From assembly GCA_046563655.1 (NCBI GenBank), contig CM102288.1:5580001-5644000 (forward strand): DNA of 64,000 nucleotides. Direction: 5' to 3'. The DNA comes from Yuukianura sp. NJ FZ-2021. Taxonomy: Eukaryota. Of this stretch, positions 12,339 to 46,934 are shown piece by piece (positions within the stretch are counted from its first letter, which is position 1; each line of letters starts with the position of its first letter). The position numbers were made by a program, and so were the translations under genes. The notes below the pieces were generated by a model that worked only from the letters and a program-made list of their open reading frames with translations, was not told the origin of the DNA and made no database searches.

Positions 12339-14738
12339 TCACCCTCTCACTTTGTCAACTCCAGCAGACGTAGGAAACGGGAGTGTTTTAGTTTGTGATT
12401 GTTGGAAATGGCGTAAAATAGCAATTTGCCAACCATTGCATGCAGATTTCACTCGAACCAAGCAAAAATAAATCAATGATTTCAGTTCATAAAGAAATAG
12501 TAGCATACACAAACACAAACCTGACAGCATCATGTAAAAACACGTAATGATGTTACCGTCTAAATTGAGTTTCTTGGGTTTAGCCTTCACGAATTTTGTT
12601 TTCTCATGCTCATTAATGACCTTGTCTCGGAAGGATGGCCTAGTTATGGGTACCCATTTTGCCCATAACTGGTAAATACCAGAAGAGAAAAGTAATTGTA
12701 ACCTTCTGTACTCATGGCTATGCAAAACATGGTACCCAAGAGAAATTGTACGTAGAGGTTCCACTCCTTTGCGGAAACGGGCATACTGTGCGGCAGAATC
12801 CAACCTCTTGCGTCGCACTCTGGTCTCGTAAAGGGCCAAATACAAATCCAACTTTGACTCCGTTGACAACACGGCCGTTTTGGAACAAAACCCAGCCATT
12901 TCTAAAAGTCTTGTAATTTTAGTCGTAAAGTCGAGACGTGTTTCAAAAAACATAGCACTGGGACATCCAACAACAAGGTTTACAGGATAAGGTTGAGTCA
13001 AGCTCAACCTGTCTGGTAAACTTCTTTTTCTCGTATCATTGATATAATAGTATGTAAAAATAGTTAAACAATTCTGCAATATACTAACATAATCCCAACG
13101 TAATCCTGGACTATTTAAACATTGAAATGCTCGTGACTCGGTGAAATGTGCTAGTCGCTTCAAAGCTGTATTCTCAGCAATTTCTTTTCGGAAGTAATCT
13201 AGAGAAGGTTTGAGAACTATTCCGTAATTCTCCTGTTTTCGGCACTCACAAAAATAAAGTGTCTGTAGTTGCTCCGTGGAAAAATCATACTGTTGGTAAC
13301 CATGCAATACCAACCTTTCTCGTGTGTAATAATACCCTTCCCTGTCGGTTAGCACCACAAAGTCCTCCAACTGACTGAACCTTTGGTACATTTGTTCAAT
13401 GGGTTTTGCAGCAGTCAAGTACGATACAACTACTCCCTTGTATGCATTTGTCAGAATAACAGTCATCAGGAACCACAAACTAACAACAAAAATTCTACCA
13501 TTTCGGGCTAATTTTTGTTGCGGGTTAGAGGATATTTCAAAAAAACTTCCGAAATATACAAACAAAAAGTCTAAACACATCGGAACAGAATGTTTAAATT
13601 CAAACGTTGTGTTTGAGTGGACATGGATTACCCAAGTAGCACAGAATGTGAGTAAGACTCCCGTTAGAATTAGTGTATTCCACGACCACTTATCGTACGG
13701 TTTTGTATAAATTTCAAAACTGAGCATGTCAATTATACCGTCACAAGTGAAGAAACTTATGTTTTCCATTCTAACTGGAGCAAAAGACCGATTGTAGTAA
13801 GTGTGCGTCGAAAGTAGATCTAATCCTTTCGCTTCTTTGCGAATCCAAAACTCGTATTCTTCCTCGAGTGTTTTGAAACCTTGTAAATTTATAGTATTGA
13901 GCTTGTATCGTAAAAGTAATTGAATGTATTCATGTAGAGTTAGTAAATTTGCCAAGCGTACAAGCGGTTTGAACGGGTTTAAAAGTTTGGCGACGTAGAG
14001 CTCAACCTGCATAGATAAATTTTTACGCGAATGGAAGTCCCTTGCTGCCCGTAAGGCGATGGCTGGAATCTCCTTTTGAAAGCGGTTCAGCGACAATGTT
14101 TTGGTGGCGCTCAACAAGCACGAAAATTTTACTCTAGAATATTCAAAATATATTTCGGAAATTACAAATTCCGTGTTGCTATTATTGTCTTGTGTGAGTC
14201 TATACAGTAGAGTAAGTTCATGAAAAAATAACAGTGGATACGAGTGCATTCTGATGTTGCTGGTAAAATCACTTTTGGAATTATTCCAATTGATGACGTG
14301 AATCGAATAGCCAAAATTTCTCATTTGATGGCCGTATTTTGATTCGACTCCATAATGTGATTTGAAACAAGAAGCGAACTGAGATGACCCGCGGTATTTC
14401 AGCTGTCCACGAATACTGTTTGGAAATAAGAGAAAAATCTCCAAGTAATTTAGTTTTTTACCACTAATGTGCACGTTATCTATTTGGCCCCAGCTACCAT
14501 AAGCACTTTCACAGTTTCCATGTGCGTAGTGCATGTAGTACAACTTGACGGGAACGGCAAAACCTGAAGTAATCTCAGGTTGCTGAATGTTCTCGGCAAT
14601 GATGAAGTTGTCACTGTGTTCAAATTGGTTTACCAGTTCATGGAAGTTCACAATGTGGAACGTAGGTTTTTGGGCAATGGCTGAAGTAAGTAAACAAAAA
14701 CTTAAAGTTGCAAACGAATTTAACACAAAAGTGAACAT
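12339..14738 (-). CDS. Divergent ionotropic receptor (IR/iGluR-like), intronless, 799 aa
   Basis: Signal peptide; pre-M1 PYDKWSW followed by a TM; M3-like WFLMTVILTNAYKGVVVSYLT; S2-like LFSSGIYQLW; M4-like KLNLDGNIITCFYMMLSGLCLCMLLFLYEL. Confidence 0.75.
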   Translation of the reverse strand: MFTFVLNSFATLSFCLLTSAIAQKPTFHIVNFHELVNQFEHSDNFIIAENIQQPEITSGFAVPVKLYYMHYAHGNCESAYGSWGQIDNVHISGKKLNYLEIFLLFPNSIRGQLKYRGSSQFASCFKSHYGVESKYGHQMRNFGYSIHVINWNNSKSDFTSNIRMHSYPLLFFHELTLLYRLTQDNNSNTEFVISEIYFEYSRVKFSCLLSATKTLSLNRFQKEIPAIALRAARDFHSRKNLSMQVELYVAKLLNPFKPLVRLANLLTLHEYIQLLLRYKLNTINLQGFKTLEEEYEFWIRKEAKGLDLLSTHTYYNRSFAPVRMENISFFTCDGIIDMLSFEIYTKPYDKWSWNTLILTGVLLTFCATWVIHVHSNTTFEFKHSVPMCLDFLFVYFGSFFEISSNPQQKLARNGRIFVVSLWFLMTVILTNAYKGVVVSYLTAAKPIEQMYQRFSQLEDFVVLTDREGYYYTRERLVLHGYQQYDFSTEQLQTLYFCECRKQENYGIVLKPSLDYFRKEIAENTALKRLAHFTESRAFQCLNSPGLRWDYVSILQNCLTIFTYYYINDTRKRSLPDRLSLTQPYPVNLVVGCPSAMFFETRLDFTTKITRLLEMAGFCSKTAVLSTESKLDLYLALYETRVRRKRLDSAAQYARFRKGVEPLRTISLGYHVLHSHEYRRLQLLFSSGIYQLWAKWVPITRPSFRDKVINEHEKTKFVKAKPKKLNLDGNIITCFYMMLSGLCLCMLLFLYELKSLIYFCLVRVKSACNGWQIAILRHFQQSQTKTLPFPTSAGVDKVRG

Positions 14739-15043
14739 AGTTGGAGAAATTGAAGTTCAATGTTTTGTATACTTGTTGTCTGTTTGCCACCCTGATACAA
14801 AAATGCCCGCTTCTAAAAGAAACGATGTACTTCACCTTAACTTTCCTAAAATTAATTGCGTATTGTATGGAATAAATAACTATGAGTTTCACATTTTTAC
14901 ATATTTGTTCTGCATGCGATGACAACTCCATTTATTATTCAAATATGTCAGAAGTGGGCGGAGCATAGCTTTTTAGCAGAGAAGGAAAAACCGAACTCTT
15001 TGTGGAACACGCCTACACGTATGCTCCATGTCAAAATATACGT

Positions 15044-21785: not shown

Positions 21786-23370
21786 ATGACATTACTTTTC
21801 TATCTAATCTGTGGAATAGTTTTGAACTCAGCGTTGACTTTCGGTTTTGAGCGGAAAGTAGATCATGGTGTAACGCAGTCGCTGATGGCTAACGGCAGAG
21901 TTGCTGTCTTGATTTCCTTTGAAAACACGAATGGAGTGCTCTCTAGCCTGGCACAGAAAAGACAGCAGAAGAAACCTGGCATCGCCGCAATGGAGGTGTA
22001 CGAGACCCTGACCTCACTTGCCAACAGGTCACAGGCAACAGTTCTCACTCTTCTCAAATCTGACCAAAAGTTGAACTCGGTCAAGGTCAAACCGCTGTGG
22101 ATATCAAACCAACTCTACATTGAGGCTGCCGATGCTCCACTCATCGCTAGGATTGCAAAAATTGAGCAAGTGAAAAGAATCCATCAAGAAATCACGATTC
22201 CATTGAATGTACCGATTCATGCTGCAGTTTCTGAAGATTGGAAAATTGGCGACAGCGTTTGGGGCATTGAGAGAATGATGGTCAAGGAGGCATGGGCAAT
22301 TGGTGGAACTGGAGAAGGGGTAACCGTTGGAATCATTGACACCGGTGCAAGATCAACTCACGAAGCAATTAAAGATAGCTACCGTGGTGATTCTCACTCG
22401 TGGTATGACCCGTATTTCAAAAGCCAAATCCCAAGTGATGTTGAGGGACATGGGACTCATGTAACAGGAACAATCGCTGGCAGGTAATCAAAGAGCGTTT
22501 CGGTTGACATATGTAAGATAATTTTTAACAATTTGAGTTAATTTTGGTTAGGTATGGAATTGGCGTTGCTCCGGGTGCCAAGTGGGTTGCATGCAAGGGA
22601 TTTGGTCCATTTGGTGCATTGGAGTCCGCACTACTAGAATGTGGTCAGTTCATGCTTTGTCCACACAAATACGACGGAAGCGAACAGGATTGCGCGAAGG
22701 CTCCACATGTCGTGAGGTTAGTTCAAATTACACTGAAATGCAATATTTATGGTTGGAAAATTTTTAATATATGCCTGCATTTTTCAACTTGTATAATCTT
22801 TACAGCAACTCCTGGGGAGGAACCGGTGGAAACCAGTTTTATGATGCAGTGATACGAGCTTGGCATGCGGCGAACATCATTCCGGTTTTCGCAGTTGGGA
22901 ACGATGGGCCTCAATGTGGAACCATTTACTCTCCTGCCGATTCTCTGGCTGGTGTTATCTCGGTTGCAGCCACTACTCCAGCAGATGGGATTGCATGGTT
23001 TAGTTCCAGAGGACCATCATTCTTTGAAGGTCAACAGAAACCTGACATCTCTGCCCCTGGACTCAATATCATTTCTGCCGGAATTGAACATGATGATGAT
23101 TACCAATTTAACTCTGGGACATCAATGGCATGTCCGCATGTGGCGGGAGTCATCGCACTTTTTAAATCAATTTGCCCATCATCAGATTTTGAATTTCTAA
23201 AAAATGTCCTAACCACTAATACTGTGCAAAACCTGACCTTTTCAGCAAGTGACCAGGACTGCGACGTCAACAATGGTTATAAATTTCCTAATAACGTGTT
23301 TGGCAGTGGACGTGTCGACGCTTTGAATGCAATTCGGGAAGCTTCAGAGCGTTGTATAAATAACGCCTAA
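21786..23370 (+). CDS. Secreted subtilisin-like S8 serine protease (bacillopeptidase F-like), 3 exons (21786-22483, 22552-22716, 22806-23370), ~475 aa
   Basis: Signal peptide and prodomain; catalytic triad VGIIDTGA / GHGTHVTGT / SGTSMACPHVAG; GIGVAPGAKWVACKG, VSNSWGG, oxyanion-hole AVGNDGP, FSSRGP, KPDISAPG, PNNVFGSGRVDA. Confidence 0.92.
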
Positions 23371-23565
23371 GCTACTTACTATGTAGTAAAACCAGTAACA
23401 AGAATTGAAATGAATAAGCAATTCAGAAGACCTAGCCTAAGTTTTCTTTGGTTTTCAAATATGAATAAATCAACACTTTAATGCCATCAAGCTATAGGTT
23501 GCTCAACCTCACCGTTAACCCAAACACAGGTACTTGGCTTCACGCTTGACTGGTAGAACGCATTG

Positions 23566-25706
23566 TTAATATGAGCTCGGTTTTGTATCGTTGACTCGGC
23601 CCACTAAAGGTGCGCCCCATGGGCACCATTTGTTTCCTGGAAGGAAAGCTCCTCCCGCTTCGGCCAAGTGCTCCTCCAGGCCAGCCATGGACGCGTCACA
23701 CACTTCAACGGCCATGTCGGTGAAATGAACAGTTTTTGGATCTGGACGTTGTAAACAAAATTCAAATTAAGATCATTTTATCTCGCTGAAACACCGTAGA
23801 ACCTAAGGTTGTGGTGGTTTAAGCAGTGTTCCGAAGTGCTTTAAAGCAGATGCTCTGCTTGCTTGTTTTTTCTTTTAAAACGAACAGAAGCAAGCAGCGA
23901 CTTTCACACTTGCTGTTTTTAATAATTTGCTGTTTTTGAAAGATCAATTAATTAACCTTTTAAGGACAAATTCTTCGTTTTCTTAGATATAGCTGTCATA
24001 AACCAAATTTAGTTACAACATTTAACAAGCTTAAGGTGATTTTGGCGTATAACGCTTCAGTTCCAAATTAGTCGATTTCAGCCGCATTTCTTTCAGCGGC
24101 ATTCAAAGCAACTTTTTGCTTTTAAAGCATAAAATGCAAAAAAAAACTATTTACAGCAAATGCGAAGCATCGACTTTAAAAAACGCTTTTTACGGAACGC
24201 TGATTCCATCCCTCCAAAAAAAATTAGGTTTTTATGTGTTTCAATGAGGAAAAAAAAGATGGACGGAGGATTTTTGAAGAGGATAATTTGAGGAAGTACA
24301 GTGAGGCCTAGCTAAAAGTACACCCAAAAATCAGTAATTTGTTTGATTTCACAACTATGGAGGGCAAACGAGTGAAATAACAGGGGGCGGCAAAAATGCC
24401 TTAGCGACCAAAACCGATTCTTTATTTGTTTACAATTTCACTCACAGTGACGTCACTCCGAGTGAAAATACAGGTTCATCCGAGTTTTTAAGCTATTTTT
24501 AAGTTTGCGGCGAAAGTATTGAGACTAAAATGCTGAAAATTTTGAACAACACTGTAAATGAGTGAACTCGGAGTCAAAGAAATCCCATAGCAACTCAGTT
24601 TTGAAAAAACAATTTTCAACAACCGTACCTATAAGTATTCTATTTACCTTGGTGAAATAACGCAATTTTCGAAAAGTCCATCATAATGGATACTAAAGTT
24701 TCAAAATTTGAGTTAGTTTTCCCGTCGTGTTTACCTAAGTTTTAACTCGTTTCTATAGAAACAAAATAGAGGTGTACTCTTTTAGCTGGGCCTCTACTGT
24801 TCCGTTCATTTAACAAAATGTCAAAAAAAGCCAAATTGCGACAAAGACTTTGCTCCCATAAGAAAAGGAGTCTAAAGAAGATCCTCGCTCCCTCCCTGCT
24901 TCATTGAAAAAAGAAGGAAGTTCACTCCTGACACCTGACCTTTCCATCAACTCTCCGAAATTAGTGTTTGCGCGGCAAGCAGATGTTAAAATTCTTAAAT
25001 TATTGGACAAATTATTCCAGTAACAATGAAATACTACCATAAATCTGTATAAATTAAATCAAAATAGTAACACACTTTTGAAATTACTTTTAGCGTTGAT
25101 TTATTTGTGCGTCTAACAATTTAATCGTTGCAACATCTGCTTGCCGCGCAAACTCTAATTTCGGAAGTTTTTTGGAAAGGCCAGGTGTCCGTAAACTAGT
25201 TCCCTCTTTTCTCAGTGACGGAGGGAGGGAACGAGGATCTTTTTTGAGATATTTTTTTCTTATGGAGCAAAGCAATTATCGCAAATTTGGTTTTTTTTTA
25301 CATTTGTTAAATGAAAGGAACAGTATTCCGCAACTCCAACTAACTCAGAGTGCGATTCCGATTAAATTGCGGTGCGATTCAATTGGTGTCATACATTCCC
25401 ATGGCACATCATATTCCAATTCGTATGAAATAAAAAAAACTGTACAAAACGAAGTGTTTTACCAAAATGGTAACTCCAATCGGGATTATATGGAGCCTTC
25501 GTTTTGCAGATTATACCAATAGCAATCTTCCTTTTCTTCCCCATACGAATGAATTCGTCCGCTTCCCTAACAACTTCGGGATCATCCACTTTTACAATGA
25601 ACTTGTTCTCCTTAACTACGATGTCTTGCAGCAAAAATAAGTCGTCGCACATAACCTCTCCGGCTACGATGAGTCCCAGCATTGTAGCGACAACGAATCC
25701 CCTCAT
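23566..25706 (-). CDS. Small secreted BP74-like protein, 2 exons (25706-25463, 23741-23566), 139 aa
   Basis: Spliced [31 protein letters not shown]...[20 protein letters not shown]...[73 protein letters not shown] sites join in frame (244+176=420 nt); motifs recalled from the microbial BP74 N-terminal family. Confidence 0.78.
23824..24202. mobile_element. MITE-like element in the BP74-like intron
   Basis: Short imperfect TIRs cagtgttccg / cggaacgctg, internal aagc/gctt subterminal motifs; no TSD found. Confidence 0.35.
24297..24799. mobile_element. Tc1/mariner-type MITE, copy 1
   Basis: TA-cagtgaggcctagctaaaagtacacc ... ggtgtactcttttagctgggcctc; shares termini and internal sequence with the copy at 26673-26899. 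Confidence 0.75.
24795..25325. mobile_element. Foldback/MITE with ~200-bp imperfect inverted arms
   Basis: TA-ctgttcc...ggaacag-TA ends; 24795-~25010 is the diverged reverse complement of ~25110-25325 (shared gtttgcgcggcaagcagatgtt and agatcctcg). Confidence 0.72.
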
Positions 25707-26672
25707 TCTGATAATTTGTTTCAATTTGTCAAAGCTACAATATGACGCAAAATTTTATTTCAGAGAAATATCGGTAGCATTTACCACCTTTCAGAACTTT
25801 TTTATTGACTGATGTCGGAAGCGGGATGTCTATCGGAAACGTTTTTTTTTCGAAATTCTGAAACAAAGCTTGTATTGAATAGGCAATACGTACTAAAAGT
25901 AAGGTCAACCGACGCCACTCGTTTGAATCCTGTTTGCGTCGGCAATTGATTAACTTCACATTGAATGCAAGGTCTTTTGAATTATTTTTTTTTACAAGGT
26001 TGCGAACTTCCTCGGTATTTTTGAATATTAAAAAAGGTACAGAAAATGCAAAGCATGAGACAATCAAAATTTATTGAAAAGAGTAACTGTTAAAAAAGTA
26101 AGTTTAATTTGAAGTTTGACTTGAACCTAACGGGGGTCTGAGCTGAAAAACAATCAGTTAACGACAAGTTCCCCCGTTCCTCGCACAAAGAATTTCCAAA
26201 TTACAACTTTGTTCTACAAAAAACGTTTTCAGAAAAATAGTTTCTCAAAAAAAACCTTTTCAGAAAAATACGGCACAAGAAAAGGTTTCGTTTTTCGCAA
26301 AATAAACAAAGAACTATAAATTTTACGAAGCTAACTAATCTAAGGGACTGTGAAACACTTTTGTTTTAAAACTTATTCTTAGAAAAACTATTAAATTACT
26401 GTATTAAAACTGCTTTATCTAAAAACCTTTGCCTTAAGAATTTTAGGACAAACTTTAGGCATTAGCAGTTTTTGAGTCGCGGGCGCTAATTTTTTCGGCT
26501 GTTGAGCGGTGCAGCGGCTATTGAAGTAGGTCTTGTGAAATTATTTCTAAATTGTAAATTAAAAATTAAATTAATTTTTTTAATTATTTATTAAATAATA
26601 TCATTAAATAAATTAAATTAATTAATTAATTAATGATATGTTAGAAAAAAATTTCACAATTTCTGGAGAAAG

Positions 26673-26899
26673 TACAGTGAGGCCCAGCTAAAAGAGTATA
26701 CAAAAAATTCAGTAATTTGTTTGATTTCGCAACCATGGAGGGAAAACGAGTGAAATAACGCGATTTGCGAAGCGTCCATCATAATGGTGAACTAAAGTTT
26801 CAAAATTCGAGTTAGTTTTCCCCCCGTGTTTACCTAAGTTTTAACTCGTTTCTATGGAAACGAAATAGGGGTGTACTCTTTTAGCTGGGCCTCACTGTA
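26673..26899. mobile_element. Tc1/mariner-type MITE, copy 2 (shorter)
   Basis: TA-cagtgaggcccagctaaaagagta ... tactcttttagctgggcctcactg-TA: perfect TIRs with TA duplication. Confidence 0.82.
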
Positions 26900-37385: not shown

Positions 37386-38000
37386 TAAATGAGTTCCCAA
37401 AACGACGTTTACTTTTATATGTTTTTGTAAAAAGAAAATTTTTTTTTCGTGTTGCGGTAGAAGTTATATAAAACGTGCCTTAGTTTCATCTGTCACTGGT
37501 TCAACATTTGAATCCTGCGTTGCTCTATCTGGAATAAATGTGGAGTTTTTCAAAGGATTTTCCCAAAAACCTGCAAACGCAATAATTAAACTACATTACA
37601 GTTGTGTGTTTTTCACTACTAACAAATATTAATTAAAATGAAGCTCAAGCTTTAAAAATATTAGTTTCATTTCCGCGCGCTAAGTAGCAAAACTTATTTA
37701 GCAATTAAAATTGCCCAAAAATGTAATCTTGAGCGTTGAAGTTGCATACAAAACTTTTTTCCAATTTCCACAAAAACTTATTAGCGTTTTTATTTCTAGT
37801 TGATCGTCTTTTATTTCTAGTTTCGCAACAAATGAATGTTGAAAGTCCGAAATTAATCGCGCGAGGAACATGGTACTAATCAACCTCATGTTGCAACGTT
37901 TTTCATTCTTAACAAAAATTAATTAAAACGAAGTTTCAATAAATTGTCGGAAAACCGAAATTTTATGATTTAGTATGTTTTCAATTCCAAAGTAAAAAAC

Positions 38001-39555
38001 ATGACTATTGATAGCAGCAGTAGATTAGTCCACATACGTTACATTGTACAGTACATTGCGTTTTTGTCAAAGTTGAACATTGTTCCACTCGAATTCAACT
38101 CCAGTGGACAAGTCGTAGTTACATCAACACTAAAACAAGGGTTGTGGCTCTTTATTTTAATGTTAAGTTATTGCAGACTAACATTGTTAGGTTTTGGTCT
38201 ATGCTGCTACTTACTAAACATCATTCAGGTAAAACTTGCAGACGCAATAATCACATTCTTCTACTTTTTAACATTCCTGATGTCTGTGGCAATTCATGGC
38301 GGAATAATGTTCAAACGAAGAGAGTTTGCTTACACGTTCAACCAGATCATATTTCTTCATGGTCAAATCGAAGGTAACTAGCCTAACACAACTAACATAA
38401 CATAATGTAACTTAACTAATGTAATCTTGACTATACTGTAACAAATATGTCACATTTTAGTGCGCTACAACGACAAGTTTAAGCTACTGTGGAAACAAAT
38501 TTCTTGGTTTGCAAAATTTTTTGCAGTGTCTACTGCCTTCAACGTATCGGTTTGTTTTGTATTTGAATTGACATTTCCGCGGAAACTTTTTCATCCCTGG
38601 TTCTTTGTTCCAAACTCCTTCCAACCTCGCTTCGGCTTGAAATTTTTTGTGGCCATTTTGGACGCTTACACTCTCTACTTTTTCGAAACGTTTGGCGTTT
38701 TTGTGGTTCTCTTCAGTATCATCTACGTCCTTCCAATCACCAAGGCAACAAGGATTCTTAGGTATACGATACTTCTTAAAGGCGGAGTTTTAACTTAAAC
38801 GACTTAAATAGCTCGAATTTCTTTGATTGACCATGAATGTAATTAATTAAAGTTAGATTAAATTTTACTCACACGGAGGTGTATTTTGTTGCATCATTTT
38901 CTGTTGAGCAAGTAACTTCTTTTCTTTTTCTTTTTCTTTTGAATGCTACGGGCGATTTTTTGTTTGCGAAAGTGACAGCAAACTTCTTTCTACTCGGAAA
39001 GTTGCGGAAAAATTTTTGTTGGCAAAGTTGCAGAAGATTTTCTGTTTTCTTAAGGAACATTTTTTTTTTATAACTAGACGCTTTCTAAATGATAAACATT
39101 TTTGACGCAGATTCGCCAGAAACTCTTCTATTCCTTTATACCGTCAATTTCAATTGGTTGATCTGCACTACAGAAACTGTTTTTCTCCCGTCCATTTCTT
39201 TACTATGATATCGATGCTTGGTTTGTCCTGGATTATACAAGCATATTTTCTCATAACAGACAAACACGGATTCCTGGGTATTCACTTGTACTTAATATTT
39301 GGCCTTGCAATACTAATGACAACAGGGGTTCTACTTGTGTGTATCATCACCTATGCGAAACTCCATACTGGAAGTGCATCGCTCATTTCAAGTTGGAAGT
39401 GCCATGCAACAACGGCAGAGGAAGTTCGGGCTTTGAAAAGTTTGCAGCCACTGAAAATTTATGTTCGTAGGTTCTTCTTCATTAAAAAGCGCACGCCGGT
39501 TGTATACTTTTGCTTTCTTTTTGATTGTCTCATAAATGTTTTACTGTCAACGTAA
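38001..39555 (+). CDS. Gustatory-receptor-like multi-pass membrane protein, 3 exons
   Basis: Hydrophobic exons 38001-~38373, ~38461-38761, ~39111-39555; LNIVPL N-terminal motif; C-terminal SLQPLKIYVRRFF...FDCLINVLLST; paralogous to 40338-42222. Confidence 0.7.
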
Positions 39556-40170: not shown

Positions 40171-40337
40171 TTTCTTTTCTCATCATCCAAACGAAGACGC
40201 TAAATTTTGGCGGTAATGGAATTCTGAATTTTTTAATAGCGCGGGTGCAAAACGAAGTATAAAATGAACAGTTTGTAACCAGCGAATCATTTCTCTGAAA
40301 TTTAAAGAATGGAAAAATTTGAAACTATTAAGAAAAA

Positions 40338-42222
40338 ATGACTGGAAAGAGTCGATCAGGTATTAGTGACAAACTTAAAAATATTGAATTCATTGCTAAA
40401 TTCACAAATTTTGCGGCCAGTCTAAACGTTGTGCCGTTCAGGTTCAATAAAGCGGGAGAATTTGAACGTAGCTCCAAACTCCGTCAATCACTTTGGCTAT
40501 TTCTGTTTTTCTTGACTCTTTTCAAATTGGTTTCCTTGGGAACAGTTTTGGTTCAATGGTACTTCAACTTCATTTCCGTGACAATTTTCGACATTGTAGT
40601 TACAATTTATTTCATTTCAATTTACACTATCTCTGCGTCATGTCATGCTGGATTGATTTTCACACGAGACGAGTTCGTTTATGGATTCAACCAAATAATT
40701 TTCATAAATAATTTGAATCACGGTAAACCTTTGTATAACCTTTGGCAAAAAAACGCCTTATATTCGTCAAAATAGATTTTTTTTGTACAGTAAAGCATCC
40801 AAGAGAATACGAGAAATTGTGGCTACAAATGGCGAATCTTGCCAAATTTTTTGCCGTGACCCTGGTCAACATTACGAATATGGCTGCCGTGATGGGTTTG
40901 ATTTTTCCTCGCAGAATTTTCAATTTCTACTACTTTGTTCCTAATTTTTTGGATAATTTTGTTGTGTTGGTTCTTTTTGCTGTAATGGAGGCGTATGTCA
41001 TGTTCGGATTGTGTGGCATGGGTGGATTCATGGTCAGCTTTAGTCTTGCCTACATGCTACCCTGCATACTTACACTCCAACAATTACGGTTCTATATACT
41101 AAAATCAATAAATTTGTACTAATAATATAGCTATAATATAATAATAATAGCAAAGTAATGTTTCTCTAGATACGACACACAGTGGTCGGCTTTTGAAAAA
41201 AAAGTTCGTTAGTTTTTTGAAGCAAACTTTAATCAGAACGTTGCCATTCGCAACGGTGTCGGTTGAAAGAAGGAAACAGTGAACAATTTTCAATTTGTTT
41301 TATTTTAACATTTAATAGCAGTTCATTAACTAAATATTAAGCAAAACAAAAGCAAACTAAGCTTTCTTCTCGTTAGTAGCAGAGTCTAGAATAGACAATT
41401 TTGTCTTCAAATCTCAATATAAGATCAACTTATAAATGCCAAATCACAAACTCGCAAATTATGACTATTGCAACCAAGAAAATAAACAAGAATTTAGGAA
41501 TAGTTTGGATAAGCCTTGAGTCATAATTAAGCGATATCTACCGAGTTCCACCTCAAAATGTCGAAGACTAAGGCCTCCAGAACGCTAATCACCATTGGGT
41601 TTGTCATTAGAGGGTGAGGCATTTTGAGGCAAAAAATCAATCGGTGCCTCAATTTTTGGGTCAAAATGACACTGATAAGTTAGTTTGTTTACAAAATTTA
41701 TTTGATTCCCTGAGAACCAAATAATAAAGAAAACAACCACTGTGCGACACTCGGACAGACCGATTCGAAACGTTATATTCTGAGTCAAAAATTTCCCTGT
41801 TGACGTATCGTCAGTTTCAACTGCTTGATCGTCTCCATAGAGACTGCTGCTCAACAGTGCCTATTCCAACTCTGGTGGTCCAAGTGGCATCTGCAATAGT
41901 TATGCAACTTTATGCTCTCATAACAAAACGATTTGGATCTCTTGGTACTCTCATCTACTGCATGTTTGGAGCGACACTTACGTACGGTATTACACTGTTG
42001 CTGTTCTTCATCGTGATGGCTGGAACTTTGAATACTGAGAGTAACAAATTGATAGCGACGTGGAAACGGAACGTCAAAAGTAGCGAAGAACTGCGCGTAG
42101 TCAGAAGTTTCCGACCGCTGAGAATCTATGTTGGAAGGCTATACGTTATAACAAGTGACACGCCGATGACTTACTTTAGACTTCTTTTTGATTGTCTCAT
42201 TGATCTGCTATTGTCAACTTAA
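40338..42222 (+). CDS. Gustatory-receptor-like multi-pass membrane protein, 3 exons
   Basis: Same exon layout as 38001-39555; LNVVPF; C-terminal SFRPLRIYVGRLY...FDCLIDLLLST. Confidence 0.7.
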
Positions 42223-42726: not shown

Positions 42727-43764
42727 ATGGCGCCAGTAAATCCATGCTGCAGTTTTGACGTCAAGATTGGAGTCATTATCATGACAATTCCGTATGCGGT
42801 AAGGTCAAATATCCGACATATTCCTCTCTCTCACACTAAAACGCACGACTCAAAGTCAGACTTCGCTCATTTAAATTTTGTTTCAGATTTACAGTTTGAT
42901 TGAAATTTGTGCGGATTCGGTGTTGGTGCATGCCAGCTTGGATAGCAAGTTCGGACAATCACTTGGGTGGGGAATGATTTTCGTTCCTTCCCATAGCTTA
43001 TGGCTTGCGTTTCATTGGATTTGGTTAGGAGATGATTACAATACAGTCTTCATTGTTGCACTTGCGGTGGACTTACTCACTTTCGTCATCAGTGCTTTGA
43101 CATTCGTTGGAGCCCTGACCGTAAGTGACTCAAGTGCTCTTGCATTCACAAAAATTTGAAAAAAAAAAACTGAAAAAAAACAAGAGTTTTTTCTGTAAGT
43201 TTGAATTTGTTTTTGATTTTGCAGAAAGTGCGTTTGCTCGTCGGAGTTTGGTACCTCATTGTGCCTACTCACATCGCCTATGTTGTGACGTTCATAGTCA
43301 AAGCCCAGAAGCAAAAGATTCATTGGCCAATCCTGACCCTCCTCTTCATGCTTGTTTTGAAGGCGTACGAAGTGTGGGTTGCGCAGGCGCTGATCAATCA
43401 GATCGGCGCAGAAAAACGCGGAGAGATTCCTCCCAACAATGCGCAGGGTTTCAACCAACTCCAGCCAGTCCAGTATGCGTATCCACAGCCTTATCCAGCG
43501 ATAGCTGAACAACCACCACCTCCTTACTATCAGCAACAAGATCAACAACAACAACCTCAACAGTACTGGCAACAAGGTCAACAACCTCCGCAGTACTTTG
43601 AACAAGGTCAACAACTTCCGCAGTACTTTCAACAAAGTCAACAACAACAACCTCAACAGTACTACCAACAAGGTCAACAACCTCCGCAGTATTTTCCACA
43701 AGGTCAACAACCTCCGCCACCACCTTACACACCAAACCCACCACCTCAGCTTCCTAAGGCATAG
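42727..43764 (+). CDS. Multi-pass (~4 TM) membrane protein with Q/P/Y-rich repeat tail, paralogue A, 3 exons
   Basis: MAPVNPCCSFDVKIGVIIM start; hydrophobic segments; VWVAQALINQI; tail with PPPPYY, QQGQQPPQYF repeats and PPPPY. Confidence 0.78.
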
Positions 43765-44294: not shown

Positions 44295-45481
44295 ATGGCG
44301 CCTGCAAATCCCTGCTGCAGTTGTGACGTCAAGATTGGAGTCATAGTCATGACAGTTGTGTATGTGGTAAGGTCAAATATACAACACATTTCTGTCTCAC
44401 GCAAGCGCACAACTCAGAGTCAGACTCATCTTGACTCACGACTCAAAAGTTATGACTCATAATCAAAAAAGAGTCACGGCTGAAAAACATAACTAGAATC
44501 GCTTCGTTTTTAATCGAGTTATGGTCTTGAACCGTGACTCATGAGTCAAGAGTCGTGAGTCATTGAGACTTCCTGGCCTTTGACAAGTAGTATAAGGTTT
44601 GAGGGAATCATACTAATGTTAAATTTTGTTTCAGGTTTACAGTGCACTTGAAATTTGTGTGGATCCGTTCCTATTGGCTGTGAGCAAAGATAAAGATTTC
44701 CTCGGTTGGACTGAGCTGTTCGCACTTGTCATACCCTACCCTAACTTATGGATGCTGCTACTTGTGGAACAACGTGATTATACTAAGTTCTTAATCGTCG
44801 TATTGGCCGTGGACTTACTCACCCTCGTCATCAGTGTATTGACATTCATTGCAGCTCTGACCGTGAGTGGCCCAATCGATCCTGTATTCCAAAAAATTCA
44901 AAAAAAGAAGCTTTTTTTGAAAGTTTGGAATTTGTTTGATTTTGCAGAAAGTACAGTTGCTCCTCCGCGTTTGGTATTTGATTGTGCCTACTCACCTCGC
45001 CTTTGCTGTGGCGCTTATAGTCCTAGGCATCAGAAAAACCATCTATGGACCAATCACGATCCTCCTCCTTATGCTAATTTTGAAGGCGTACGAAGTGTGG
45101 GTTGCGCAGGCGCTGATCAATCAGATCGGCACAGAAGAACGAGGAGAGAATCCGCAACGGAATGCGCAGGGTTTCAACCAACTCCAGCCCATCCAGTATG
45201 CGTATCCACAGCCGTATCCGGCGCTAGGTGAACAACCACCACCTCCCTACTATCAGCTACAAGGTCAACAACAACAACCTCAACAGTACTGGCAACAAGG
45301 TCAACAACCTCCGCAGTACTTGCAACAAGGTCAACAACCTCCGCAGTACTTGCAACAAGGTCAACAATCTCCGCAGTATTTTCAACAAGGTCAACAACCT
45401 CCGCAGTACTTTCAACAAGGTCAACAACCTCCGCCACCTCCTTACATACCAAACCCACCACCTCAGCTTCCTAAGGCATAG
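44295..45481 (+). CDS. Multi-pass membrane protein with Q/P/Y-rich tail, paralogue B, 3 exons
   Basis: MAPANPCCSCDVKIGVIVM; last exon and 3' flank nearly identical to paralogue A; 30-nt tandem unit encoding QQGQQPPQY(L/F). Confidence 0.78.
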
Positions 45482-46004: not shown

Positions 46005-46934
46005 ATGGCGCCTGTAAATCCCTGCTGCTGCTGTGACATCAAGATTGGAGTCATAGTTATGACATCTATATTTTTGGTAAGTAATCCGTCCATCGTCCAT
46101 CGCTTACCGTCCACCGTCTATTCCATGACGTCCACCGTCCATTGCCTACCGTCCACTGTCACACTTTGATTTTATTTCTTGTCAGTTTTTCGACGTAATT
46201 GAAATTCCCCTCACAATGGCCATTCTCATTACTAGCGACTACTCTTACACCGATGCCAACAATGAAGTGCTGCAACGTCTGCGTGGAGACGAGGAATTTG
46301 CGATCGCCATGGTCTACTTGGTGGCAAACTTCGTTGAAATCGTCGTCACCATCATCACGCTGATTGGCGCGTGTAATGTGAGCTCTTGTCCAATCACATT
46401 CTCAAATTCTGGAAAACGTTTTTTTTTTAATTTTGCTGTTTGTTACGTTTTTAGCGAATTGTTGGGATGATTCGTTCCTGGTACGCCATTGTGCTTGTGT
46501 ACCTGTGCTACGCTGGCGCCAGTTTCAGAAAATTCAAGATGGATTACATCTACTTTTGGGTCATCGCGGTCGTCTTTGTTGGACTATTTATAGCCTACTT
46601 CGTGTGGGTTGCGCAGGCGCTCATCAACAAAATTAAGGCAGAAGACCGCGGAGAAATTCCTGCCGAAGGGCAAGCATTCAACCAATTCCAACCTGCCCAG
46701 TATCCATATCCCCAGCAAAATGCTGGATACCCAGTCCAAGGTCAACCTCCACCGCCATATTACTCCCCACAACGTCAACAATCTCCGCCTCCATACTTTC
46801 AGCTGCAACAAGGTCAACAATCTCCTGTATACTTTCAGCAACAAGGTCAACAACCTCCTGGGTACTATCAGCAACAAGGTCAACAACCTCCAGCATTCGC
46901 TGGAAATGAAAAAGGAAATGCTGGTCTACAGTAA
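46005..46934 (+). CDS. Multi-pass membrane protein with Q/P/Y-rich tail, paralogue C (more divergent), 3 exons
   Basis: MAPVNPCCCCDIKIGVIVM; VWVAQALINKI; PPPPYY, SPPPYF, QQGQQ repeats. Confidence 0.78.
46086..46160. repeat. Degenerate 7-nt microsatellite (ccgtcca/tcgtcca) in intron 1 of paralogue C
   Basis: ccgtccatcgtccatcg...ccgtccaccgtct...cgtccaccgtccatt...ccgtccactgtc. Confidence 0.55.

Follow-up and report, generated by a model that had tools for sequence, protein, structure and literature searches.

An intact, intron-split BP74_N gene of likely foreign origin on an arthropod chromosome

Introduction

How did a protein domain whose named relatives are all bacterial or dictyostelid come to be encoded on an arthropod chromosome, and is the gene that encodes it a working one? 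These questions are raised by a small locus of Yuukianura sp. NJ FZ-2021 (GenBank assembly GCA_046563655.1, contig CM102288.1). The window analysed here is a stretch of 64,000 nucleotides of that contig (positions 5,580,001 to 5,644,000, forward strand), and all coordinates below are counted from its first letter. On its minus strand lies a two-exon gene, here called the BP74-like gene, which is an intact frame coding for a 139-amino-acid (aa) protein with a single BP74_N domain (PF23621), and we consider a foreign, horizontal origin of this gene likely. The explanation that we prefer as a whole, namely a horizontally gained, intact, secreted BP74_N gene whose product would act as an extracellular binding module, is in our judgement probable though far from assured.

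If true, this explanation would mean that the genes which soil arthropods took from microbes include a further, uncharacterised microbial domain family, and would show that small intron-split acquisitions evade both open reading frame (ORF) tracks and protein databases. The kind of find is in itself not surprising: foreign genes reported from springtails number in the hundreds (253 horizontally acquired genes in Orchesella cincta, PMC4987106), and the S8 protease gene next to the BP74-like gene belongs to one such family. New here are the family concerned and the fact that the gene goes unseen in ORF tracks and is missing from the protein collection searched. An animal copy under selection would moreover strengthen the motive for elucidating the function of the domain and offer another system in which to do so.

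Gene structure and domain identity

When its two exons are joined, the BP74-like gene reads as 420 nt, that is 139 codons and one terminal stop (Table 1). The position of the junction was approached in several ways: (i), GT donors in 25400-25560 were combined with AG acceptors in 23650-23900, only those pairs being counted whose frame stays open over 100 aa or more, and the pair 25463/23741 came first of the 58 in-frame pairings with a score of 136.4 bits against the family hidden Markov model (HMM), the runner-up reaching 127.0. (ii), both splice sites are canonical, and the codon that they divide, G/AT, encodes an Asp equal to the consensus D of a conserved 'HLDP' motif. (iii), in a 12-row alignment of homologues (A1), exactly one column is absent between the two exon halves, and it is this conserved D. 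(iv), a bacterial homologue (P0004) aligned by tblastn runs unbroken across the junction at its aa 91/92, its aa 38-91 matching 25622-25464 and its aa 92-146 matching 23742-23578. The same query found no second copy of the domain within the window.

Table 1. Coordinates of the BP74-like gene and of other features of the window
Feature	Position	Strand	Description
Exon 1, coding part	25463..25706	-	244 nt; ATG at 25706 to donor; aa 1-81 and first base of codon 82
Exon 2, coding part	23566..23741	-	176 nt; codon 82 (Asp) from its second base, aa 83-139, stop codon (TAA, 23568-23566)
Intron	23742..25462	-	1,721 nt; phase 1, spliceosomal-type, GT..AG (donor GT 25462-25461, acceptor AG 23743-23742); GC 0.356
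Probable signal peptide, about aa 1-20	25647..25706	-	M-R, then 14-residue hydrophobic core; read from sequence
Possible polyadenylation signal ATTAAA	23477..23482	-	84 nt past the stop; consensus match only, no proof of use
Foldback (MITE-like) inverted repeat in intron	24795..25325		531 nt; repeat search and blastn
Two intron repeat segments	24290-24381 and 24652-24800		Recur as one block at 26666-26898; blastn
S8 subtilase gene	21786-23370	+	Three exons (~21786-22483, 22551-22716, 22806-23370), two short introns; signal-type N-terminus
Ionotropic receptor-like ORF	12339-14756	-	805 aa, uninterrupted
Two tandem sets of multi-exon ORFs	37974-39555 and 40332-42222	+	Chemoreceptor-like look
Three tandem paralogous ORFs	43174-43764, 44921-45481 and 46455-46934	+	Q/P-rich repeat tails

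Each exon is recognised by itself as part of the domain: the Pfam profile BP74_N (PF23621; 114 positions, gathering cut-off 27 bits) matches aa 24-81 in exon 1 at positions 5-61 (43.5 bits, E 3.2e-11) and aa 1-49 of the exon 2 translation at positions 63-111 (E 1.3e-16 at 60.9 bits). The split codon provides position 62, so that the domain is whole and collinear over both exons, and with the local family HMM the spliced protein reaches 136.3 bits (E 3e-40). NCBIfam holds no family for either exon (only one chance-level row at 0.13), nor for five bacterial and dictyostelid members. The domain starts at aa 24 and is preceded by a hydrophobic N-terminus, much as A1 shows leaders ahead of the domain in stand-alone homologues; this N-terminus is a probable signal peptide, by which the protein would be exported.

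These results bear out much of an earlier sequence-only reading of the locus, which had joined donor 25463 to acceptor 23741, obtained a clean 139-aa frame and named a BP74-type domain: the domain so named is PF23621, the junction is the best of the 58 pairings with the domain halves contiguous across it, and every motif quoted in that reading is present in the two exon translations, including EVCDA and, across the junction, D/PKTVHF. Its description of the intron as filled with transposable elements was accurate in part, as the intron contains a foldback element and two repeat segments. The foldback, which resembles a miniature inverted-repeat transposable element (MITE), matches itself at 74.7% over 546 nt by blastn (about 75% self-complementary). 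The two segments are 88-91% identical to the block at 26666-26898, upstream of the gene. In the intron, some 270 nt of unrelated letters separate the two parts of the copy of this block, and the repeat is probably a small non-autonomous element whose intron copy has received a nested insertion.

Conserved residues and the case for a working gene

Across 211 aligned domain rows, 27 columns are at least 85% conserved, and the consensus residue is kept by the window protein in 23 of them, among them both cysteines (C96 and C121) as well as N74, E94, D97, W120 and W123. Conserved residues of the family motifs YNP..W, EVCD and GG.FLPG..WCPW are retained. Two of the four exceptions are charge reversals, D50 in place of the R typical of the family (201 of 211 rows) and R130 in place of its E (205 of 211), and the two columns covary: 10 rows depart from the consensus at the first, 6 at the second and 4 at both. 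This suggests that the R/E pair forms a salt bridge in the family, and the exchange in the window protein looks like one that maintains the contact.

Would the same gene be a decaying or silent relic, with a frame still open and neither expression nor function? A search of sequencing runs for 23400-25850 listed no RNA run, the end branch of the protein is the longest in the tree described below (1.58), two positions conserved at 95% and 97% are altered and repeats have invaded its intron. A relic would, however, have to have kept a frame intact over both exons with an in-frame start and canonical splice sites, as well as 23 of the 27 conserved columns including both cysteines, and its two radical changes would have fallen on a coupled pair in which the charges are swapped rather than destroyed. 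We therefore think it unlikely that the gene is a relic. The intact frame, the splicing signals, the retained residues and the coupled charge swap rather speak, indirectly, for selection.

Chromosomal context and host-like features

The window is clearly a piece of an arthropod chromosome, with arthropod or metazoan genes on both sides of the BP74-like gene. The uninterrupted ionotropic receptor-like ORF has, as nearest Atlas clusters, arthropod ionotropic receptors (score 0.97) that are 99-100% Eukaryota and most commonly Arthropoda, its Lig_chan score of 26.9 bits being slightly below the cut-off. Pfam searches further recognised DHC_N1 (dynein heavy chain), ALG10, An_peroxidase, DENR/SUI1, MH2 (SMAD) and GH1 on the same contig. 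The composition of the gene is host-like: its coding sequence has a GC content of 0.476 (0.507 at third codon positions), and the native exons measured lie at 0.39-0.485.

This setting bears directly on whether the sequence could have come from a microbe in the sample, by contamination or through an assembly chimera, as might be asked of a gene whose family is otherwise microbial. We consider this extremely improbable: the coding sequence is broken by a 1.7-kb GT..AG intron, the repeat segments of this intron have a second copy on the contig, 1 kb upstream, the flanking genes within the window are arthropod or metazoan, and the GC content matches that of host exons. The earlier statement that a microbial-type domain resides in an animal genome thus agrees with the flanks of the gene and with its named relatives, all of which are bacteria or dictyostelids. 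The gene may also be domesticated, as was proposed there; the grounds for this are the presence of an intron, a GC content like that of the host and the conserved residues that the protein has kept.

Distribution of relatives

An exhaustive HMMER comparison of exon 2 with 1.84 billion cluster representatives yielded 282 matches with E <= 1e-3, 42 of which reach E <= 1e-10. Among them the best identities to exon 2 are 60-67%, with no near-identical protein; over the whole domain (114 columns) the highest identity is 49%. For exon 2, a word-index search of 5.8 billion clusters gave three longer proteins only and no close match of 101-2000 aa; for exon 1, nothing with words in common was returned at lengths of 44-142 aa. 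Neither the gene product nor a close orthologue is thus present in that protein collection. Among metagenome contigs of the JGI, exon 1 found one distant relative at 43% identity and no close one (at least 598 pattern matches), and in the ESM Atlas the best match to exon 2 was an uninformative, unnamed cluster (score 0.76).

Names were looked up for 30 of the 150 representatives listed (out of the 282). Those that bear a name come from Heterostelium album (two), Cavenderia fasciculata (one; P0136, CaM-BP15), Streptomyces (one; P0018, a 'calmodulin-binding / BP74-related protein') and Streptomyces/Kitasatospora (one; P0090, hemopexin fusions), the remainder of the 30 being unnamed metagenome proteins. 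No animal or fungal protein is among these named relatives, in a collection that holds NCBI, UniRef and EukProt.

The family is found mainly in bacteria. In species-representative prokaryote genomes searched with a 6-row alignment (A2), 273 of 406 pattern matches encode relatives, mostly from soil phyla. The 80 loci kept from these 273 belong to Actinomycetota, Myxococcota, Acidobacteriota, Pseudomonadota, Cyanobacteriota and Bacillota, together with one archaeal metagenome-assembled genome (MAG), and the bacterial loci are 51-71% identical to exon 2. Nearly all of the BP74_N diversity is thus bacterial. In bacteria too the family is patchy: whole-genome samples contained it in 12 of 201 genomes of the phylum of locus L004 (G003 and G050 being unpublished), in 31 of 201 of the phylum of locus L006 and in none of 14 controls.

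The closest known counterparts of the window protein can be compared with it in some detail. Like it, the dictyostelid CaM-BP15/CmbC proteins combine a signal-type N-terminus with a single BP74_N domain in 130-141 aa (139 aa here). One of them, the 130-aa protein of H. album (XP_020434996.1, P0014), is 65% identical to exon 2, and that of C. fasciculata (XP_004361377.1, P0136) is of the CaM-BP15/CmbC type with the same one-domain form. The window protein differs from CmbC by an R to D change at the conserved 'AR' position and by a longer, unconserved C-terminal tail; kinship with CmbC has no statistical support, and the calmodulin binding of the latter is labelled 'putative' in the source name. 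The bacterial stand-alone proteins, such as that of Streptomyces (WP_365625481.1, P0018), share the Pfam family and the one-domain secreted architecture, and loci of Myxococcus, Streptosporangium and Rhizobium (within L002-L080) are also of the stand-alone type. Unlike the window gene, the bacterial genes are intronless and mostly reside in high-GC genomes. With the much longer BP74 of Dictyostelium discoideum, which names the Pfam family, the window protein has the N-terminal domain in common by Pfam definition, whereas the window gene encodes the domain alone; a larger BP74-like architecture is seen in P0120, an S/N-rich representative of 645 aa.

Origin of the gene

This distribution of relatives is explained most economically if the gene is of foreign origin. 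The default donor would be a soil bacterium, because nearly all of the diversity of the family is bacterial, and an amoebozoan source is possible. The gene would thus have entered the animal lineage from a soil microbe, bacterium or amoebozoan, and would later have gained a spliceosomal intron, seen this intron invaded by repeats and shifted to a host-like base composition. Springtails and other soil arthropods offer precedents of this kind, with microbial-type genes for secreted proteins that likewise have introns and a host-like composition; the bacillopeptidases of O. cincta, for example, are described as a foreign and expanded family (PMC4987106). BP74 and CaM-BP15 were not found in the searchable supplementary file 2 of the same paper.

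Two trees were calculated. FastTree, run on the 211 domain rows, paired the window protein with the dictyostelid P0014 at a Shimodaira-Hasegawa-like (SH-like) value of 86, below the support mark. A more careful IQ-TREE analysis used 82 rows and 139 columns, made up of a single locus from each genus, the closest representatives, the fusion proteins and the rows from eukaryotes; further loci of these genera and all other representatives were omitted, and its bootstrap of 200 trees was not fully settled. Several points weigh against a horizontal gain. The absence of animal relatives was judged indirectly, from the names of those 30 representatives. In the IQ-TREE analysis, the window protein falls in a polytomy without any supported set, at the end of its long branch. 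Furthermore, the R at the E column (E in 205 rows) is common to the window protein and P0014 only, 2 of 211 rows, and a eukaryote-to-eukaryote route or old vertical descent may also fit the proximity of the two.

The last possibility deserves to be considered in its own right: BP74_N/CmbC would have been present in an early eukaryote, passed vertically into Amoebozoa and into this arthropod lineage, and been lost or left unannotated elsewhere. P0014 is the nearest row by path in the IQ-TREE analysis as well as in the FastTree one, the rare R is common to it and the window protein only, and a tree that forces the window protein into one clade with both dictyostelid rows, at a cost of 16.4 log-likelihood units, is not rejected by the approximately unbiased (AU) test (p-AU 0.251). 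Small two-exon genes, moreover, easily escape annotation, as does the present one, which is itself missing from the protein collection. Vertical descent nevertheless sits poorly with the lack of any animal or fungal member among the named matches despite the content of the databases, and with a family far more diverse in bacteria. The two dictyostelid rows group together in none of the 200 bootstrap trees, and the pairing with P0014, which lacks support and involves long branches and AT-rich-type composition, may be due to attraction. We thus regard an ancient eukaryotic gene as decidedly unlikely. As for horizontal acquisition, which the sequence-only reading had proposed, it is favoured by named relatives that are all microbial, but the tree offers no supported sister from which a donor could be named.

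Possible function

We found no functional study of the BP74_N domain or of its bacterial stand-alone proteins in the literature. What can be said comes from its company. Pfam annotation of 51 longer representatives, bacterial and metagenomic, found BP74_N together with DUF4434 (two proteins), GH25, S1/P1 nuclease, Peptidase_S8, Peptidase_C25, Kazal domains (three, one of them with PepSY), hemopexin, RTX repeats (two), CBM_5_12, TIG, Big_2, BACON, a NedA-like galactose-binding domain and CarboxypepD_reg, and some longer members bear BP74_N in tandem. This is the behaviour expected of a promiscuous extracellular accessory module. In Dictyostelium, CmbC has been detected in conditioned buffer and in the slime-sheath matrix, according to a review (PMC7079120), and a microarray table in another paper (PMC2920877) records its induction by nitrosative stress.

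P0022, P0108, P0118 and locus L057 belong to one clade (98/93*) of BP74_N proteins with an N-terminal Kazal-type inhibitor domain; P0022 combines it with a C-terminal PepSY domain, and one row of the clade comes from an archaeal (Aenigmatarchaeota) MAG. The three Kazal fusions are probably the product of one event.

Because bacterial BP74_N adds onto secreted hydrolases and adhesin-type modules, and because CmbC occurs in secreted and matrix fractions, it is tempting to speculate that the window protein binds a polymer outside the cell. Once exported, the protein would probably be stabilised by a disulfide between its two conserved cysteines and would act as a small extracellular binding module, its ligand most likely being a glycan or a polymer of the cell wall or matrix. 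We put forward this view of the protein tentatively, as a possible function rather than a probable one. A catalytic or metal-binding site would explain the invariant polar N, E and D residues equally well, and the bacterial loci point to no recurrent partner: when ORFs of at least 200 aa within 4 kb of the 80 loci were compared, the most widespread neighbour clusters reached 3 taxonomic families and 3-6 of the 80 loci.

Structure prediction adds a hint. The model concerns P0014, the closest relative, and not the spliced window protein; AlphaFold2 with a 55-row alignment produced it confidently, at a predicted local distance difference test score (pLDDT) of 92.2 and a predicted template modelling score (pTM) of 0.81. 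Foldseek found no match to it in the PDB at E <= 1e-3, and the highest Z in a VIA wide search was 3.9 (68 residues aligned, root-mean-square deviation 3.2 Å), below the level that the tool deems meaningful. The top VIA rows, all within 1 Z unit, are OB-like chains (toxin B subunits, SilF and single-stranded DNA-binding proteins), a hint that the N-terminal half of BP74_N may be a small beta-barrel. A profile-to-PDB sequence search reached only a best E of 0.48. That the P0014 model matches no solved fold counts against the binding-module part of our explanation.

The neighbouring S8 protease

Next to the BP74-like gene lies a gene for a secreted-type S8 subtilase (Table 1). The relatives of its last exon are unnamed JGI contigs of about 1.5 kb (51-59% identity), springtail bacillopeptidase F (42-50%) and oomycete subtilisins, and its named animal relatives are all Collembola (Orchesella, Folsomia and Allacma), which would point to a springtail-like soil arthropod as the source of the window. 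In the O. cincta study (PMC4987106), the bacillopeptidase family is described as horizontally acquired and then expanded. The S8 neighbour is thus also of foreign type, so that two foreign-type secreted genes sit tail to tail.

It may be asked whether the two proteins work together, the BP74-like protein acting as an inhibitor, chaperone or substrate-targeting factor of the convergent protease. Such a partnership would be in line with the closeness of the two genes, whose stop codons are 196 bp apart, and with the fusion of BP74_N to protease-related domains in 7 of the 51 longer representatives: Peptidase_S8 (P0100; its cluster member P0280 has 642 aa), Peptidase_C25, Peptidase_M10_C with RTX, and Kazal three times, once with PepSY. 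Convergent neighbours, however, have no shared promoter, identity between the window S8 and the corresponding portion of P0280 amounts to just 30%, the Kazal fusions fall into the single clade with the archaeal MAG row and hence probably count once, and S8 lies near BP74_N in none (tblastn) or one (S8 HMM) of the 80 bacterial loci. A role as protease partner therefore appears improbable to us.

A related candidate, the transfer of a bacterial S8 and BP74 pair as such, was considered and rejected as a conserved arrangement in bacteria: an S8 gene lies within 6 kb in 0 of the 80 loci by tblastn and in 1 (L010) by the S8 HMM. The low identity to the S8 of the single S8-BP74_N fusion seen and the bacterial neighbourhoods, with no partner that recurs, point the same way. 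A bolder scenario would join several of these threads, making the locus the first animal BP74_N/CmbC-type gene, derived from a dictyostelid-like soil amoeba and retained together with the adjoining, independently foreign bacillopeptidase-type S8 protease, with which it would function as a pair, for example as an extracellular regulator or substrate-targeting factor in the digestion of microbial biomass. We judge this combination very unlikely.

Other features of the window

Further along the plus strand, two tandem sets of similar multi-exon ORFs contain many hydrophobic stretches and have a chemoreceptor-like look (Table 1); four ORF pieces of these sets were scanned and gave no Pfam match at E <= 1e-3. 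They are followed by the three tandem paralogous ORFs, one of which (the middle one, at 44921-45481) was scanned, with no Pfam match; all three share a hydrophobic N-terminal half and a Q/P-rich repeat tail of the 'QQGQQPPQY' type.

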